A DNA stretch of 64,000 nucleotides from Escherichia phage T4. Below the pieces are notes generated by a model. That model had not been told where the DNA came from. It did not search any database and saw nothing but the letters and a program-made list of their open reading frames with translations. Location of the stretch: the sequence record NC_000866.4; one strand, given 5' to 3'. Position 1 is the first letter of the stretch. Every line of letters starts with the position of its first letter. The position numbers and the translations under genes were made by a program. Of the stretch, positions 1-55,297 are shown one piece after another.

Positions 1-41
1 CGAAAGTCGCATCTCGTTTCTAATTTTAAAGGTTAACACAA

Positions 42-1607
42 ATGACTATCAAAACTAAAGCTGAACTTTTGAACAAATGGAAGCCATTACTGGAAGGTGA
101 AGGTTTACCGGAAATTGCTAATAGCAAACAAGCGATTATCGCTAAAATCTTTGAAAACCAGGAAAAAGATTTCCAGACAGCTCCGGAATATAAAGACGAA
201 AAAATTGCTCAGGCATTCGGTTCTTTCTTAACAGAAGCTGAAATCGGTGGTGACCACGGTTACAATGCTACCAACATCGCTGCAGGTCAGACTTCTGGCG
301 CAGTAACTCAGATTGGCCCAGCTGTTATGGGTATGGTACGTCGTGCTATTCCTAACCTGATTGCTTTCGATATTTGTGGTGTTCAGCCGATGAACAGCCC
401 GACTGGCCAGGTATTCGCACTGCGCGCAGTATATGGTAAAGACCCAGTGGCTGCCGGTGCTAAAGAAGCATTCCACCCAATGTATGGTCCAGATGCAATG
501 TTCTCTGGTCAGGGTGCTGCTAAGAAATTCCCAGCTCTGGCTGCTAGCACACAAACCACAGTAGGTGATATCTATACTCACTTCTTCCAGGAAACTGGTA
601 CTGTATATCTGCAAGCTTCTGTTCAAGTAACAATCGATGCTGGTGCGACTGATGCTGCTAAATTAGATGCTGAAATTAAGAAACAAATGGAAGCTGGTGC
701 ACTGGTAGAAATCGCTGAAGGTATGGCTACTTCTATCGCTGAACTCCAGGAAGGTTTCAATGGTTCTACCGATAACCCATGGAATGAAATGGGCTTCCGT
801 ATCGATAAGCAAGTTATCGAAGCTAAATCTCGTCAGCTGAAAGCTGCTTACTCTATTGAATTAGCACAAGACCTCCGCGCTGTTCACGGTATGGATGCTG
901 ATGCTGAACTGTCTGGTATTCTGGCTACAGAAATTATGCTGGAAATCAACCGTGAAGTTGTTGATTGGATTAACTACTCAGCTCAGGTTGGTAAATCTGG
1001 TATGACCCTGACTCCGGGTTCTAAAGCTGGTGTATTTGACTTCCAGGACCCAATTGATATTCGTGGTGCTCGCTGGGCGGGTGAATCCTTTAAAGCTCTG
1101 TTGTTCCAGATTGACAAAGAAGCAGTTGAAATTGCTCGTCAGACCGGTCGTGGTGAAGGTAACTTCATTATCGCTTCCCGTAACGTAGTTAACGTTTTGG
1201 CTTCAGTTGATACCGGCATTTCTTATGCTGCACAGGGTCTGGCTACCGGCTTTAGCACTGATACTACCAAGTCAGTATTTGCTGGTGTTCTGGGTGGTAA
1301 ATACCGCGTATATATCGACCAGTATGCTAAACAGGATTATTTCACTGTAGGTTATAAAGGTCCGAACGAAATGGATGCTGGTATTTACTATGCTCCATAT
1401 GTAGCTCTGACTCCGCTGCGTGGTTCCGATCCGAAGAACTTCCAACCGGTAATGGGATTCAAAACTCGTTACGGTATCGGTATCAACCCATTTGCAGAAT
1501 CCGCTGCTCAGGCTCCGGCTTCTCGCATCCAGAGCGGTATGCCTTCTATTCTGAATAGCCTTGGTAAAAACGCTTACTTTAGACGTGTATATGTTAAAGG
1601 TATCTAA
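42..1607 (+). CDS. 23: Major capsid protein gp23 (precursor)
   Basis: 521-aa ORF, ATG at 42 verified; N-terminus MTIKTKAELLNKWKPLLEGEG and length match T4 gp23 as recalled. Confidence 0.96.
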   Translation: MTIKTKAELLNKWKPLLEGEGLPEIANSKQAIIAKIFENQEKDFQTAPEYKDEKIAQAFGSFLTEAEIGGDHGYNATNIAAGQTSGAVTQIGPAVMGMVRRAIPNLIAFDICGVQPMNSPTGQVFALRAVYGKDPVAAGAKEAFHPMYGPDAMFSGQGAAKKFPALAASTQTTVGDIYTHFFQETGTVYLQASVQVTIDAGATDAAKLDAEIKKQMEAGALVEIAEGMATSIAELQEGFNGSTDNPWNEMGFRIDKQVIEAKSRQLKAAYSIELAQDLRAVHGMDADAELSGILATEIMLEINREVVDWINYSAQVGKSGMTLTPGSKAGVFDFQDPIDIRGARWAGESFKALLFQIDKEAVEIARQTGRGEGNFIIASRNVVNVLASVDTGISYAAQGLATGFSTDTTKSVFAGVLGGKYRVYIDQYAKQDYFTVGYKGPNEMDAGIYYAPYVALTPLRGSDPKNFQPVMGFKTRYGIGINPFAESAAQAPASRIQSGMPSILNSLGKNAYFRRVYVKGI

Positions 1608-1633
1608 TCTCTAACGATAGAAACACAATTTTA

Positions 1634-1657
1634 GGGAACCTTCGGGTTCCCTTTTTT
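1634..1657 (+). terminator. Rho-independent terminator hairpin after gene 23
   Basis: GGGAACC-ttcg-GGTTCCC stem-loop followed by TTTTTT on plus strand. Confidence 0.7.
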
Positions 1658-2320
1658 CTATTTTATACGATAGCAATCAGGCATATCATCCGCATTTATC
1701 CAATTGCGAATAGTTTTAGGACTAACTTTAAAATGCTCCGCTGCGTAATCAGGATTATCAAATTTAACGCCCTTTATACATATTGGAATAAATTTTTTAA
1801 TACCACCAAGTTTTTCAGAAATAGCTTTACGATGTGAAATCGATATAGGTTTGTTTTTTCGTGGATGAACATGTGTTTTATAATATTCATTGCGCCCTTT
1901 AACTCGCTTCGCAATAGTTTCATCAGATTGCTTAACGCCTGTTTTTGCCTTTGATATTTTTCGTTTAGCTTCCACAGTCATTCCTTCTTTTGTTCGTATT
2001 GATAACATATTACGATATGAAGGATCTTGCAAATGAACTATAACTGGATTTCCTCTGCCACCAATAGCAGCATTATAGGTATCAGTTCTCATAACGAATT
2101 CCTCATTAACTAGTAAAGCTTCCATTTTATACATCTCCTCAGATGAGGAGAAAGAATAAAGAATTTCTTTTTTAAAGTTATGAATACCATATTTTTTGAT
2201 GGATTTTTTGATGTTTACGCCAGAACCCATATAACCATCGTTTTCGTCAAGAGTAGCATGAGCTCCGATGTAAATTTTTCCATTGATGATATTAGTAATT
2301 TGATATATTAAATATTTCAT
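1658..2320 (-). CDS. segD: GIY-YIG homing endonuclease (SegD-like)
   Basis: N-terminal GIY-YIG motif KYLIYQITNIINGKIYIGAH; sits between genes 23 and 24; track ORF begins at a GTG (2332), ATG at 2320 has GGAG upstream. Confidence 0.8.
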   Translation of the reverse strand: MKYLIYQITNIINGKIYIGAHATLDENDGYMGSGVNIKKSIKKYGIHNFKKEILYSFSSSEEMYKMEALLVNEEFVMRTDTYNAAIGGRGNPVIVHLQDPSYRNMLSIRTKEGMTVEAKRKISKAKTGVKQSDETIAKRVKGRNEYYKTHVHPRKNKPISISHRKAISEKLGGIKKFIPICIKGVKFDNPDYAAEHFKVSPKTIRNWINADDMPDCYRIK

Positions 2321-2384
2321 TTTAAACATCACTCCGTTTGTATATGATTATAATATCATATTACTTTGGTCTTGTAAATAACTT

Positions 2385-2392
2385 TATAAATA
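2385..2392 (+). promoter_or_regulatory. T4-type late promoter TATAAATA upstream of gene 24
   Basis: exact TATAAATA about 28 nt upstream of the gene 24 ATG. Confidence 0.6.
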
Positions 2393-2419
2393 GTATTATA
2401 TTTCAACAAGGAAAATACA

Positions 2420-3703
2420 ATGGCTAAAATCAACGAACTTCTGCGCGAATCAACCACAACGAATAGCAACTCAATCGGTCGCCCAAATCTCGTTGCTTTG
2501 ACTCGCGCTACCACTAAATTAATATATTCTGACATTGTAGCAACGCAAAGAACTAATCAACCTGTTGCTGCTTTTTATGGTATCAAATACCTTAACCCAG
2601 ACAACGAATTTACATTTAAAACTGGTGCTACTTACGCTGGCGAAGCTGGATATGTAGACCGAGAACAAATCACAGAATTAACAGAAGAGTCTAAATTAAC
2701 TCTCAATAAAGGCGATTTATTCAAATATAATAATATCGTTTATAAAGTATTAGAAGATACTCCATTTGCTACTATCGAAGAAAGTGATTTAGAATTAGCT
2801 CTTCAGATTGCAATCGTTCTTTTAAAGGTTCGTCTATTTTCTGACGCAGCGTCAACAAGCAAATTTGAAAGCTCTGATAGTGAAATTGCGGATGCTAGAT
2901 TCCAGATTAATAAATGGCAAACTGCAGTTAAATCTCGTAAACTTAAAACTGGCATCACAGTTGAATTAGCGCAAGATTTAGAAGCAAATGGATTCGATGC
3001 TCCTAATTTCTTGGAAGATTTGCTTGCAACTGAAATGGCAGATGAAATCAATAAAGACATTCTGCAGTCTTTGATTACAGTGTCAAAACGCTATAAAGTT
3101 ACAGGAATTACTGATAGTGGATTCATCGATTTGAGTTATGCATCTGCTCCTGAAGCTGGTCGTTCATTATACCGAATGGTATGTGAAATGGTTTCGCATA
3201 TCCAAAAAGAATCAACTTATACAGCAACGTTCTGTGTTGCTTCAGCTCGTGCCGCTGCGATTCTTGCTGCATCAGGCTGGTTAAAACATAAACCAGAAGA
3301 TGACAAATATCTTTCACAAAATGCCTACGGGTTCTTAGCTAATGGTTTACCGCTTTATTGCGATACTAACAGCCCATTAGATTATGTAATCGTTGGCGTA
3401 GTAGAAAATATCGGTGAAAAAGAAATTGTTGGATCAATTTTCTATGCTCCGTATACAGAAGGTCTCGACTTAGATGACCCTGAACATGTAGGTGCATTTA
3501 AAGTTGTTGTTGATCCAGAAAGCTTACAACCATCTATCGGTTTATTAGTTAGATATGCTTTATCAGCAAATCCTTATACTGTAGCAAAAGATGAAAAAGA
3601 AGCAAGAATAATTGACGGTGGAGACATGGATAAAATGGCAGGTCGTTCAGATTTGTCTGTTTTATTAGGTGTTAAGCTACCAAAAATTATCATTGATGAA
3701 TAA
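2420..3703 (+). CDS. 24: Capsid vertex protein gp24
   Basis: 427-aa ORF, ATG verified; paralogous to gp23 (shared ...VELAQDL... block); position after gene 23. Confidence 0.95.
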   Translation: MAKINELLRESTTTNSNSIGRPNLVALTRATTKLIYSDIVATQRTNQPVAAFYGIKYLNPDNEFTFKTGATYAGEAGYVDREQITELTEESKLTLNKGDLFKYNNIVYKVLEDTPFATIEESDLELALQIAIVLLKVRLFSDAASTSKFESSDSEIADARFQINKWQTAVKSRKLKTGITVELAQDLEANGFDAPNFLEDLLATEMADEINKDILQSLITVSKRYKVTGITDSGFIDLSYASAPEAGRSLYRMVCEMVSHIQKESTYTATFCVASARAAAILAASGWLKHKPEDDKYLSQNAYGFLANGLPLYCDTNSPLDYVIVGVVENIGEKEIVGSIFYAPYTEGLDLDDPEHVGAFKVVVDPESLQPSIGLLVRYALSANPYTVAKDEKEARIIDGGDMDKMAGRSDLSVLLGVKLPKIIIDE

Positions 3704-33554: not shown

Positions 33555-34152
33555 CGTATGTTCGATTGAGCTCGCTAATTCTCAACCCGTTCTCTTATGA
33601 ACTGCTGCATGTTACCATGCAGTCCAGACTATATCACAATCCCGGAGGGATTCTCCCCATTTCGAGTCGCTTGACCCTACGTCCGAAGACTAGTCGTTGA
33701 ACCTTGTTTTGCAATTGTCGCCGTGCCATCGTTTATATGTTGATGGTGATAAATCTTTCTTATCACAATATGGACAATTCAATTGAATTCTATTTGGATT
33801 TAATTTACATCTGTCATTATGTTTTAGATAAAATCCAGGACCTTTACCAATGTGACCACAGAAATCACATGTGATTTCTTTTTGTGCAGGATGGGTCCCG
33901 TTCTTAACCATTTCTAATGTTTTTGCTGATGTTCTTTTCTTATGTTCTTCCATCAGAATCTTTAGGTATAGGTCCGTTAGCATCTATCCAAATTTTTCTA
34001 TAGTTCAATTGTGCATCCTCTTAAAAGTATAATCATATTTATATTATACTAATTAAAGGTGCAAGCAAAACCTTGGCTGCTAGTTTTCCATAAAGGACTT
34101 TCCAGCAATTAAAGGAGTTTTCGATAAACGTTACCGTTTAAAGGCGCATTTT
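33555..34152 (-). mobile_element. Group I self-splicing intron in nrdB (598 nt)
   Basis: in-frame stop immediately after exon 1; exon 1 ends in U and intron ends in G; core blocks shared with the td intron; contains an endonuclease-remnant ORF. Confidence 0.85.
33690..33983 (-). pseudogene. I-TevIII: Truncated intron endonuclease remnant (I-TevIII-like)
   Basis: 97-aa intron ORF with CxxC...CxxC zinc-finger-like motifs and no recognisable nuclease domain. Confidence 0.7.
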
Positions 34153-38643: not shown

Positions 38644-39660
38644 CATTATGTTCAGATAAGGTCGTTAATCTTACCCCGGAATTATATCCAGCTGCATGTC
38701 ACCATGCAGAGCAGACTATATCTCCAACTTGTTAAAGCAAGTTGTCTATCGTTTCGAGTCACTTGACCCTACTCCCCAAAGGGATAGTCGTTAGGCATTT
38801 ATGTAGAACCAATTCCATTTATCAGATTTTACACGATAAGTAACTAATCCAGACGAAATTTTAAAATGTCTAGCTGCATCTGCTGCACAATCAAAAATAA
38901 CCCCATCACATGAAATCTTTTTAATATTACTAGGCTTTTTACCTTTCATCTTTTCTGATATTTTAGATTTAGTTATGTCTGAATGCTTATGATTAAAGAA
39001 TGAATTATTTTCACCTGAACGATTTCTGCATTTACTACAAGTATAAGCAGAAGTTTGTATGCGAACACCGCACTTACAAAACTTATGGGTTTCTGGATTC
39101 CAACGCCCGTTTTTACTTCCGGGTTTACTGTAAAGAGCTTTCCGACCATCAGGTCCAAGTTTAAGCATCTTAGCTTTAACAGTTTCAGAACGTTTCTTAA
39201 TAATTTCTTCTTTTAATGGATGCGTAGAACATGTATCACCAAACGTTGCATCAGCAATATTGTATCCATTAATTTTAGAATTAAGCTCTTTAATCCAAAA
39301 ATTTTCTCGTTCAATAATCAAATCTTTCTCATATGGAATTTCTTCCAAAATAGAACATTCAAACACATTACCATGTTTGTTAAAAGACCTCTGAAGTTTT
39401 ATAGAAGAATGGCATCCTTTTTCTAAATCTTTAAAATGCCTCTTCCATCTCTTTTCAAAATCTTTAGCACTTCCTACATATACTTTATTGTTTAAAGTAT
39501 TTTTAATCTGATAAATTCCGCTTTTCATAAATACCTCTTTAAATATAGAAGTATTTATTAAAGGGCAAGTCCTACAATTTAGCACGGGATTGTCTACTAG
39601 AGAGGTTCCCCGTTTAGATAGATTACAAGTATAAGTCACCTTATACTCAGGCCTCAATTA
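38644..39660 (-). mobile_element. Group I self-splicing intron in td (about 1.0 kb) carrying I-TevI
   Basis: intron begins UAAUUGAGGCCUGAGUAUAAGGUGACUUAUACUUG right after exon 1 and ends ...AACAUAAUG before exon 2. Confidence 0.92.
38791..39528 (-). CDS. I-TevI: Intron-encoded GIY-YIG homing endonuclease I-TevI
   Basis: 245 aa from ATG at 39528, N-terminus MKSGIYQIKNTLNNKVYVGSAKDFEKRWKRH; track ORF extended 43 codons upstream into intron sequence. Confidence 0.93.
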   Translation of the reverse strand: MKSGIYQIKNTLNNKVYVGSAKDFEKRWKRHFKDLEKGCHSSIKLQRSFNKHGNVFECSILEEIPYEKDLIIERENFWIKELNSKINGYNIADATFGDTCSTHPLKEEIIKKRSETVKAKMLKLGPDGRKALYSKPGSKNGRWNPETHKFCKCGVRIQTSAYTCSKCRNRSGENNSFFNHKHSDITKSKISEKMKGKKPSNIKKISCDGVIFDCAADAARHFKISSGLVTYRVKSDKWNWFYINA

Positions 39661-49783: not shown

Positions 49784-50902
49784 ATGGAAAAATTTATGGC
49801 CGAGTTTGGACAAGGATATGTCCAAACGCCATTTTTATCGGAAAGTAATTCAGTAAGATATAAAATAAGTATAGCGGGTTCTTGCCCGCTTTCTACAGCA
49901 GGACCATCATATGTTAAATTTCAGGATAATCCTGTAGGAAGTCAAACATTTAGCGCAGGCCTCCATTTAAGAGTTTTTGACCCTTCCACCGGAGCATTAG
50001 TTGATAGTAAGTCATATGCCTTTTCGACTTCAAATGATACTACATCAGCTGCTTTTGTTAGTTTCATGAATTCTTTGACGAATAATCGAATTGTTGCTAT
50101 ATTAACTAGTGGAAAGGTTAATTTTCCTCCTGAAGTAGTATCTTGGTTAAGAACCGCCGGAACGTCTGCCTTTCCATCTGATTCTATATTGTCAAGATTT
50201 GACGTATCATATGCTGCTTTTTATACTTCTTCTAAAAGAGCTATCGCATTAGAGCATGTTAAACTGAGTAATAGAAAAAGCACAGATGATTATCAAACTA
50301 TTTTAGATGTTGTATTTGACAGTTTAGAAGATGTAGGGGCTACCGGGTTTCCAAGAGGAACGTATGAAAGTGTTGAGCAATTCATGTCGGCAGTTGGTGG
50401 AACTAATGACGAAATTGCGAGATTGCCAACTTCAGCTGCTATAAGTAAATTATCTGATTATAATTTAATTCCTGGAGATGTTCTTTATCTTAAAGCTCAG
50501 TTATATGCTGATGCTGATTTACTTGCTCTTGGAACTACAAATATATCTATCCGTTTTTATAATGCATCTAACGGATATATTTCTTCAACACAAGCTGAAT
50601 TTACTGGGCAAGCTGGGTCATGGGAATTAAAGGAAGATTATGTAGTTGTTCCAGAAAACGCAGTAGGATTTACGATATACGCACAGAGAACTGCACAAGC
50701 TGGCCAAGGTGGCATGAGAAATTTAAGCTTTTCTGAAGTATCAAGAAATGGCGGCATTTCGAAACCTGCTGAATTTGGCGTCAATGGTATTCGTGTTAAT
50801 TATATCTGCGAATCCGCTTCACCCCCGGATATAATGGTACTTCCTACGCAAGCATCGTCTAAAACTGGTAAAGTGTTTGGGCAAGAATTTAGAGAAGTTT
50901 AA
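49784..50902 (+). CDS. 35: Long tail fibre hinge protein gp35
   Basis: 372-aa ORF. Confidence 0.9.
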   Translation: MEKFMAEFGQGYVQTPFLSESNSVRYKISIAGSCPLSTAGPSYVKFQDNPVGSQTFSAGLHLRVFDPSTGALVDSKSYAFSTSNDTTSAAFVSFMNSLTNNRIVAILTSGKVNFPPEVVSWLRTAGTSAFPSDSILSRFDVSYAAFYTSSKRAIALEHVKLSNRKSTDDYQTILDVVFDSLEDVGATGFPRGTYESVEQFMSAVGGTNDEIARLPTSAAISKLSDYNLIPGDVLYLKAQLYADADLLALGTTNISIRFYNASNGYISSTQAEFTGQAGSWELKEDYVVVPENAVGFTIYAQRTAQAGQGGMRNLSFSEVSRNGGISKPAEFGVNGIRVNYICESASPPDIMVLPTQASSKTGKVFGQEFREV

Positions 50903-51638: not shown

Positions 51639-54600
51639 ATGGCTACTTTAAAACAAATACAATTTAAAAGAAGCAAAATCGCAGGAACACGTCCTGCTGC
51701 TTCAGTATTAGCCGAAGGTGAATTGGCTATAAACTTAAAAGATAGAACAATTTTTACTAAAGATGATTCAGGAAATATCATCGATCTAGGTTTTGCTAAA
51801 GGCGGGCAAGTTGATGGCAACGTTACTATTAACGGACTTTTGAGATTAAATGGCGATTATGTACAAACAGGTGGAATGACTGTAAACGGACCCATTGGTT
51901 CTACTGATGGCGTCACTGGAAAAATTTTCAGATCTACACAGGGTTCATTTTATGCAAGAGCAACAAACGATACTTCAAATGCCCATTTATGGTTTGAAAA
52001 TGCCGATGGCACTGAACGTGGCGTTATATATGCTCGCCCTCAAACTACAACTGACGGTGAAATACGCCTTAGGGTTAGACAAGGAACAGGAAGCACTGCC
52101 AACAGTGAATTCTATTTCCGCTCTATAAATGGAGGCGAATTTCAGGCTAACCGTATTTTAGCATCAGATTCGTTAGTAACAAAACGCATTGCGGTTGATA
52201 CCGTTATTCATGATGCCAAAGCATTTGGACAATATGATTCTCACTCTTTGGTTAATTATGTTTATCCTGGAACCGGTGAAACAAATGGTGTAAACTATCT
52301 TCGTAAAGTTCGCGCTAAGTCCGGTGGTACAATTTATCATGAAATTGTTACTGCACAAACAGGCCTGGCTGATGAAGTTTCTTGGTGGTCTGGTGATACA
52401 CCAGTATTTAAACTATACGGTATTCGTGACGATGGCAGAATGATTATCCGTAATAGCCTTGCATTAGGTACATTCACTACAAATTTCCCGTCTAGTGATT
52501 ATGGCAACGTCGGTGTAATGGGCGATAAGTATCTTGTTCTCGGCGACACTGTAACTGGCTTGTCATACAAAAAAACTGGTGTATTTGATCTAGTTGGCGG
52601 TGGATATTCTGTTGCTTCTATTACTCCTGACAGTTTCCGTAGTACTCGTAAAGGTATATTTGGTCGTTCTGAGGACCAAGGCGCAACTTGGATAATGCCT
52701 GGTACAAATGCTGCTCTCTTGTCTGTTCAAACACAAGCTGATAATAACAATGCTGGAGACGGACAAACCCATATCGGGTACAATGCTGGCGGTAAAATGA
52801 ACCACTATTTCCGTGGTACAGGTCAGATGAATATCAATACCCAACAAGGTATGGAAATTAACCCGGGTATTTTGAAATTGGTAACTGGCTCTAATAATGT
52901 ACAATTTTACGCTGACGGAACTATTTCTTCCATTCAACCTATTAAATTAGATAACGAGATATTTTTAACTAAATCTAATAATACTGCGGGTCTTAAATTT
53001 GGAGCTCCTAGCCAAGTTGATGGCACAAGGACTATCCAATGGAACGGTGGTACTCGCGAAGGACAGAATAAAAACTATGTGATTATTAAAGCATGGGGTA
53101 ACTCATTTAATGCCACTGGTGATAGATCTCGCGAAACGGTTTTCCAAGTATCAGATAGTCAAGGATATTATTTTTATGCTCATCGTAAAGCTCCAACCGG
53201 CGACGAAACTATTGGACGTATTGAAGCTCAATTTGCTGGGGATGTTTATGCTAAAGGTATTATTGCCAACGGAAATTTTAGAGTTGTTGGGTCAAGCGCT
53301 TTAGCCGGCAATGTTACTATGTCTAACGGTTTGTTTGTCCAAGGTGGTTCTTCTATTACTGGACAAGTTAAAATTGGCGGAACAGCAAACGCACTGAGAA
53401 TTTGGAACGCTGAATATGGTGCTATTTTCCGTCGTTCGGAAAGTAACTTTTATATTATTCCAACCAATCAAAATGAAGGAGAAAGTGGAGACATTCACAG
53501 CTCTTTGAGACCTGTGAGAATAGGATTAAACGATGGCATGGTTGGGTTAGGAAGAGATTCTTTTATAGTAGATCAAAATAATGCTTTAACTACGATAAAC
53601 AGTAACTCTCGCATTAATGCCAACTTTAGAATGCAATTGGGGCAGTCGGCATACATTGATGCAGAATGTACTGATGCTGTTCGCCCGGCGGGTGCAGGTT
53701 CATTTGCTTCCCAGAATAATGAAGACGTCCGTGCGCCGTTCTATATGAATATTGATAGAACTGATGCTAGTGCATATGTTCCTATTTTGAAACAACGTTA
53801 TGTTCAAGGCAATGGCTGCTATTCATTAGGGACTTTAATTAATAATGGTAATTTCCGAGTTCATTACCATGGCGGCGGAGATAACGGTTCTACAGGTCCA
53901 CAGACTGCTGATTTTGGATGGGAATTTATTAAAAACGGTGATTTTATTTCACCTCGCGATTTAATAGCAGGCAAAGTCAGATTTGATAGAACTGGTAATA
54001 TCACTGGTGGTTCTGGTAATTTTGCTAACTTAAACAGTACAATTGAATCACTTAAAACTGATATCATGTCGAGTTACCCAATTGGTGCTCCGATTCCTTG
54101 GCCGAGTGATTCAGTTCCTGCTGGATTTGCTTTGATGGAAGGTCAGACCTTTGATAAGTCCGCATATCCAAAGTTAGCTGTTGCATATCCTAGCGGTGTT
54201 ATTCCAGATATGCGCGGGCAAACTATCAAGGGTAAACCAAGTGGTCGTGCTGTTTTGAGCGCTGAGGCAGATGGTGTTAAGGCTCATAGCCATAGTGCAT
54301 CGGCTTCAAGTACTGACTTAGGTACTAAAACCACATCAAGCTTTGACTATGGTACGAAGGGAACTAACAGTACGGGTGGACACACTCACTCTGGTAGTGG
54401 TTCTACTAGCACAAATGGTGAGCACAGCCACTACATCGAGGCATGGAATGGTACTGGTGTAGGTGGTAATAAGATGTCATCATATGCCATATCATACAGG
54501 GCGGGTGGGAGTAACACTAATGCAGCAGGGAACCACAGTCACACTTTCTCTTTTGGGACTAGCAGTGCTGGCGACCATTCCCACTCTGTAGGTATTGGTG

Positions 54601-54719
54601 CTCATACCCACACGGTAGCAATTGGATCACATGGTCATACTATCACTGTAAATAGTACAGGTAATACAGAAAACACGGTTAAAAACATTGCTTTTAACTA
54701 TATCGTTCGTTTAGCATAA
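51639..54719 (+). CDS. 37: Long tail fibre distal subunit / receptor-binding protein gp37
   Basis: 1026-aa ORF; C-terminal His-x-His repeat region (HSHS, HTHS, HSHY, HSHT, HSHS, HTHT, HGHT). Confidence 0.95.
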
Positions 54720-54723
54720 GGAG

Positions 54724-54741
54724 AGGGGCTTCGGCCCTTCT
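54724..54741 (+). other. RNA hairpin between genes 37 and 38
   Basis: GAGGGGC-ttcg-GCCCTTC. Confidence 0.4.
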
Positions 54742-54745
54742 AAAT

Positions 54746-55297
54746 ATGAAAATATATCATTATTATTTTGACACTAAAGAATTTTACAAAGAAGAAAATT
54801 ACAAACCGGTTAAAGGCCTCGGTCTTCCTGCTCATTCAACAATTAAAAAACCTTTAGAACCTAAAGAAGGATACGCGGTTGTATTTGATGAACGTACTCA
54901 GGATTGGATTTATGAAGAAGACCATCGCGGAAAACGCGCATGGACTTTTAATAAAGAAGAAATTTTTATAAGTGACATTGGAAGCCCGGTTGGTATAACT
55001 TTCGATGAGCCCGGCGAATTTGATATATGGACTGATGACGGTTGGAAAGAAGACGAAACATATAAGCGAGTTTTAATTCGTAATAGAAAAATTGAAGAAT
55101 TATATAAAGAGTTCCAAGTTTTAAATAATATGATTGAAGCTTCTGTCGCCAATAAAAAGGAAAAATTCTATTATAAAAACCTTAAGCGGTTCTTTGCTCT
55201 TTTAGAAAAGCATGAGCATTTAGGTGGTGAATTCCCTTCATGGCCTGAAAAAGAACAGAAGCCTTGGTATAAGCGTTTATTCAAGCATTACGTATAA
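54746..55297 (+). CDS. 38: gp38 tail-fibre assembly / receptor-recognition protein
   Basis: 183-aa ORF directly after gene 37. Confidence 0.88.
   Translation: MKIYHYYFDTKEFYKEENYKPVKGLGLPAHSTIKKPLEPKEGYAVVFDERTQDWIYEEDHRGKRAWTFNKEEIFISDIGSPVGITFDEPGEFDIWTDDGWKEDETYKRVLIRNRKIEELYKEFQVLNNMIEASVANKKEKFYYKNLKRFFALLEKHEHLGGEFPSWPEKEQKPWYKRLFKHYV

Follow-up and report, generated by a model that had tools for sequence, protein, structure and literature searches.

The array of seven His-x-His motifs encoded near the 3' end of gene 37 is, judged by sequence identity, the crystallised receptor-binding tip of the phage T4 long tail fibre, and the whole 64-kb stretch of DNA that was analysed (the window) is phage T4. 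Almost certainly, the motifs build the seven-iron, six-stranded antiparallel beta needle of the gp37 trimer, in which receptor recognition falls to a tip subdomain. Atomic detail of this feature is already available, the gp37 structure having been solved in 2010, and its identification brings no new biology. The value of the result lies in correct annotation; structure, metal sites and receptor-binding residues have all been published. The segment is nonetheless the host-recognition device of a model phage and a template for host-range engineering.

Gene 37 (51639..54719, plus strand) encodes the 1026-residue distal subunit of the long tail fibre, gp37, as established by its open reading frame and by DNA identity to T4 records, in which the matching annotation reads 'long tail fiber, distal subunit'. 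Together, genes 37 and 38 (51639-55297) are 99.9% identical in DNA to many complete T4 genomes, and the original T4 entry for the two genes, J02509, matches with 100% identity over 96% of the query (positions 1-3504). Compared with the resequenced T4 genome MT984581, these 3.66 kb contain three differences, none of them in the tip. Two are gene 37 bases far from the tip, at window positions 51919 and 53291; one of them gives glycine at gp37 residue 94 (G94) where MT984581 has alanine (A94), and the other is silent. The third is a single C in the hairpin between genes 37 and 38. The gene neighbourhood in the window comprises 34, 35, 36, 37, 38, t, asiA, arn and motA. At the protein level, the chains of PDB 2XGF ('long tail fiber protein P37') match gp37 785-1026 without a mismatch, with 100% identity along all 242 residues (E 4.3e-152). 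It is this protein identity, combined with DNA identity of 99.9-100%, that identifies both the window and the feature. The crystal structure behind the 2XGF entry, that of the gp37 receptor-binding tip, was reportedly described by Bartual et al. in 2010. Motif count and spacing show no deviation from known gp37 tips: the T4 tip in 2XGF has the same seven H-x-H motifs, the same collar domain and the same downstream gp38 chaperone, with no difference in the tip.

The histidine motifs and the architecture of the needle

A regular-expression scan of the translation located the seven motifs of the gp37 needle within nucleotides 54285-54638, all on the plus strand. In order, they are HSHS (residues 883-885, nucleotides 54285-54293), HTHS (915-917, 54381-54389), HSHY (929-931, 54423-54431), HSHT (966-968, 54534-54542), HSHS (980-982, 54576-54584), HTHT (989-991, 54603-54611) and HGHT (998-1000, 54630-54638), precisely the tetrapeptides, and the order, that the original prediction had listed. 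Their placement in the last ~120 residues was right as to proximity to the C-terminus, but the motifs actually lie 27-144 residues from it. The spacings across motifs 4-7 are 14, 9 and 9 residues, and motifs 5-7 form a 9-residue tandem repeat, H-x-H-[ST]-[VI]-x-[IV]-x-x. On the opposite strand, no open reading frame of at least 60 residues occurs within 54280-54650.

Nucleotides 54280-54650 correspond to gp37 residues 881-1004, where Gly, Ser and Thr make up 51% of the sequence (S 24, G 21, T 18; n=124), much as the prediction of a Gly/Ser/Thr-rich setting had it. This biased composition, together with a His content of 11%, might invite the view that the array arose by chance from low-complexity sequence rich in G, S, T and H. 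Composition-preserving shuffling of residues 876-1010 argues otherwise: seven motifs arose in 0 of 20,000 shuffles, the maximum being six (in 6 shuffles), and shuffles of the whole protein (n=5,000) gave at most four. Within residues 876-1010, none of the 14 histidines lies outside an H-x-H pair. The motifs are moreover kept in relatives, and a structure of the identical sequence, 2XGF, has been solved; together these leave a chance origin with essentially no probability. An eighth H-x-H, HYH at residues 742-744 (53862-53870), is found upstream of both the needle and the crystallised fragment. Six gp37 relatives all retain H742, but H744 is kept in close relatives only; HYH is therefore not a conserved H-x-H, and probably not a further conserved metal site.

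The published domain limits set the motifs in their structural context. Islam et al. (2019; PMC6957217) define a collar, D10, composed of residues 811-881 plus 1010-1026, into which the elongated domain D11 (882-1009) is inserted; D11 in turn comprises a stem (882-931 and 960-1009) and a tip subdomain (932-959). Transferred to the plus strand of the window, these limits assign the N-terminal part of the collar or knob domain D10 to 54069..54281, the outgoing arm of the needle stem, with motifs 1-3, to 54282..54431, the tip subdomain to 54432..54515, the returning arm, with motifs 4-7, to 54516..54665, and the C-terminal 17 residues that rejoin D10 to 54666..54716. Consistent with a needle inserted in a collar, the Pfam family PF07484 (Phage Tail Collar Domain) matches residues 816-863 (E 7e-11; 42.4 bits, cutoff 24), and a conserved C-terminal strand goes back to the collar. 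A second family, PF03335 (Phage tail fibre repeat, 14 residues), matches the His region with a summed score of 31 bits over a gathering cutoff of 20; its best repeat, residues 924-937, covers H929/H931, and no single repeat is significant alone. Since the chain doubles back and its final 17 residues return to the collar, the sequence ends away from the physical tip. The expression 'C-terminal tip', as used in the original prediction, is therefore apt for the His array as the tip region of gp37 but not for the distal end of the fibre, which is formed by residues 932-959 (PMC6957217).

What the histidines bind is known from papers that cite the structure work. PMC6957217, PMC6116203 and PMC11705849 place seven iron ions along the gp37 needle, coordinated by His-x-His motifs. 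According to Buth et al. (2018; PMC6116203), the motifs in 2XGF form octahedral six-histidine iron sites of the kind present in the fibres of pyocins and the spikes of P2 and phi92. Both PMC6957217 and PMC6116203 locate the irons in the trimer core, fully coordinated by six histidines each. With residues 785-1026 identical to 2XGF, the predicted metal-coordinating needle is borne out. Substitution of either of two of these histidines (H929A, H931A) abolishes plaque formation (PMC6957217), and a role of the H-x-H sites in folding registration or stiffness has been judged likely (PMC6116203).

The picture of the needle that emerges is almost certainly right, and nothing observed here speaks against it. 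Each of the three gp37 chains of the published trimer runs from the collar to the distal tip (882-931) and back again (960-1009), the three together forming a six-stranded antiparallel beta needle. At each of seven axial levels, one His-x-His from every chain faces inward, and the six imidazoles surround one buried iron octahedrally, giving seven ions per fibre. Such sites may keep the three chains in register and stiffen an otherwise thin needle, and they probably serve also as registration points during folding of the trimer, a process that requires the chaperones gp38, encoded by the next gene, and gp57A.

The individual site is shared with other trimeric fibres and spikes. R-type pyocin fibres and the central spikes P2 gpV and phi92 have the same octahedral six-His iron site, formed by three symmetry-related H-x-H motifs, and the T4 short tail fibre gp12 has an H-x-H site of the same geometry that was crystallised with Zn (PMC6116203). 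These proteins carry one site per trimer in another fold context, whereas T4 gp37 has seven in a row.

Receptor recognition and host range

The region was originally called a receptor-binding needle, a description that holds in that this is the receptor-binding tip of gp37, but not for the histidines, which form the buried core of the stem, whereas the receptor contacts lie in 932-959 (PMC6957217). Mutagenesis has traced the binding of LPS and OmpC to residues on the surface of this tip subdomain, which is situated between motifs 3 and 4 (PMC6957217); recognition is conferred by the subdomain and not by the histidines. Specificity residues have also been placed within gp37 907-996 (Montag et al. 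1990, as cited in PMC9659904).

A quite different use of the metal has been put forward under the name 'Ferrojan horse', in which H-x-H-bound iron would act as bait, mimicking siderophore iron for the iron-uptake receptors of the host or delivering iron to it. The hypothesis is published (Bonnain et al. 2016) and is cited alongside T4 gp37 in PMC11705849; H-x-H motifs are also widespread among phage fibres. The receptors of T4, however, are LPS and OmpC, bound through surface residues of the tip subdomain (PMC6957217), and the irons are enclosed in the core by six histidines, which leaves no free coordination site for a receptor (PMC6957217, PMC6116203). For the T4 tip, this reading is very improbable. 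A structural role of the buried iron, with recognition entrusted to the tip subdomain, is preferred.

The further suggestion that host-range changes usually map to this region and to gp38 is valid for the T-evens in general, but in T4 the role of gp38 is that of a chaperone in folding rather than of an adhesin (PMC3157838; match to phrog_105). This chaperone can still alter host range, to go by the title of Hashemolhosseini et al. (1994). In T2/T6/S16-type phages, the tip occupies the same position on the virion, with the same 37-38 gene order and the same task of host recognition, but there an unrelated gp38 of ~260 residues is the adhesin and sits on the processed end of gp37 (PMC3157838). 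The adhesin of T4 is contained within gp37 itself, gp38 (183 residues) being only a chaperone (PMC3157838; record annotation). A tip of the T2/T6/S16 type with a gp38 adhesin was ruled out for the window, where gp38 has 183 residues and matches tail-fibre assembly families.

Motif number and arm length in related fibres

When the C-terminal 166 residues of gp37 served as a tblastn query, 508 phage records matched, among them those of T-even gp37, of the lambdoid side tail fibres (Stf) and of P2-like and Felix-O1-like fibres. Eleven of the matched fibres were aligned. The invariant columns among these 11 relatives include motifs 1, 2 and 7 (H883/H885, H915/H917 and H998/H1000), and variation, insertions and deletions peak in the block that separates motif 3 from motif 4. 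Among the aligned relatives, the C-terminal [14 protein letters not shown] hardly varies; lambdoid Stf fibres (with Tfa), P2-like fibres and Felix-O1-like fibres share it with T4, as they do an adjacent assembly gene of the Tfa/gp38 type. Their tips are a homologous collar-needle module with conserved H-x-H motifs, and differ from T4 in motif number (4-8), in arm length, in unrelated tip insertions and in their N-terminal shafts.

Across the relatives, H-x-H motifs number from 4 to 8, almost all histidines of the segment being in H-x-H pairs, and the lengths of the outgoing and returning arms co-vary (22/17, 32/26, 46/40 and 56/49 residues). In T4, three motifs lie in the outgoing arm (882-931) and four in the returning arm (960-1009). 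If an equal rise per residue is assumed for both arms, with the offset given by the domain boundaries in the literature, the seven motifs of T4 fall into an interleaved ladder whose steps measure 8, 9, 9, 6, 8 and 6 residues. Going from the collar towards the tip, the sites would then be ordered 883/885, 998/1000, 989/991, 980/982, 915/917, 966/968, 929/931. The ladder stays regular in the relatives, the Felix-O1-like fibre fitting less well. Arms that lengthen together and a ladder that remains regular are to be expected of a needle that runs out and back with its metal sites in one line. We infer this interleaved order of the gp37 metal sites from sequence and published domain limits rather than from coordinates.

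Phage F2 and the HK629 Stf are among the relatives with eight motifs, whereas Klebsiella GZ7 and SEN5 have four or five. In the eight-motif relatives, the outgoing arm is longer by a His-free unit of ~9-10 residues (four of the five that are T-even or lambdoid have FDYGTKTTSS here), and the returning arm has an extra 9-residue HxHTVGIGA unit. Such an extra paired unit may add one metal level while keeping the ladder at 6-9 residues per step. Needle length might on this pattern be set in quantised steps, with the H-x-H count as a ruler and resizing through paired gain or loss of units, a proposition for which we hold the chances to be about even. It may already be implicit in the gp37 structure work of 2010. 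The relatives offer a compact rule, paired lengthening of the arms with one metal site per step, that could aid the design of chimeric fibre tips.

The gain of whole units bears also on another possibility, namely that the 'His boxes' matter chiefly as DNA homologies through which tip segments are recombined, duplicated or swapped, the metal being secondary. Relatives do differ by whole units, the extra FDYGTKTTSS and HxHTVGIGA, and weak DNA repeats of 19-34 nt with 68-75% identity are centred on the CAYnnnCAY codons; Tetart et al. (1996), to judge from its title, connects expansion of host range with a duplicated small adhesin domain. These repeats are short and diverged, however, and the histidines are kept in distant fibres despite different codons and contexts. 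The lethality of H929A and H931A (PMC6957217) likewise speaks for the residues themselves. As the chief significance of the motifs, a role at the DNA level is accordingly unlikely; it is more readily understood as a by-product of the way the repeats are built, at most additional to the structural role of the metal sites. A tandem DNA array in 54100-54720 was considered separately and dismissed, the repeats there being too weak (short, 68-75% identical).

Gene 38 and other features of the window

Directly downstream of gene 37 lies an assembly chaperone gene of the Tfa/gp38 type, gene 38 (54746..55297, plus strand), whose 183-residue product gp38 is the chaperone for folding of the gp37 tip. 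The protein is identical to gp38 of T4 MT984581, annotated as 'distal long tail fiber assembly catalyst', and matches phrog_105 ('tail fiber assembly') with E 6e-45; a Pfam search with gp38 returned no match. The chaperone role of T4 gp38 is documented (PMC6957217, PMC3157838).

The translation initiation region of gene 38 (54720..54748, plus strand) is composed of a GGAG Shine-Dalgarno sequence, a hairpin with a UUCG tetraloop and the ATG. Folding of the RNA between GGAG and ATG yields a hairpin of -16.7 kcal/mol (z -2.9). This is the 'split' initiation region of T4 gene 38, in which the hairpin cuts a 22-nt spacing between Shine-Dalgarno sequence and AUG to ~5 nt (PMC3014915). It is in the 3' arm of this hairpin, at 54734, that MT984581 has its extra C (GCCCC, against GCCC in the window), and most modern T4 records count 3660 bases where the query covering genes 37-38 has 3659. 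Because of the extra C in MT984581 and the additional base of modern records, the window is taken to carry the older reference reading at 54734, possibly a compression error in a GC-rich hairpin.

Scans of the whole 64-kb window with Rfam at gathering thresholds and for tRNAs gave no match. A permissive Rfam scan produced two sub-threshold group I intron matches on the minus strand, at 38692-38922 and 33605-33785 (40.3 and 27.5 bits, cutoff 50). They lie where the td and nrdB introns of T4 are expected. Upstream of gene 37, the hinge protein gp35 (49784-50902) matches Pfam PF15711, ILEI (interleukin-like EMT inducer / FAM3 fold), over residues 59-127 (35.9 bits, cutoff 27); the name of this family is surprising for the hinge of a phage fibre.
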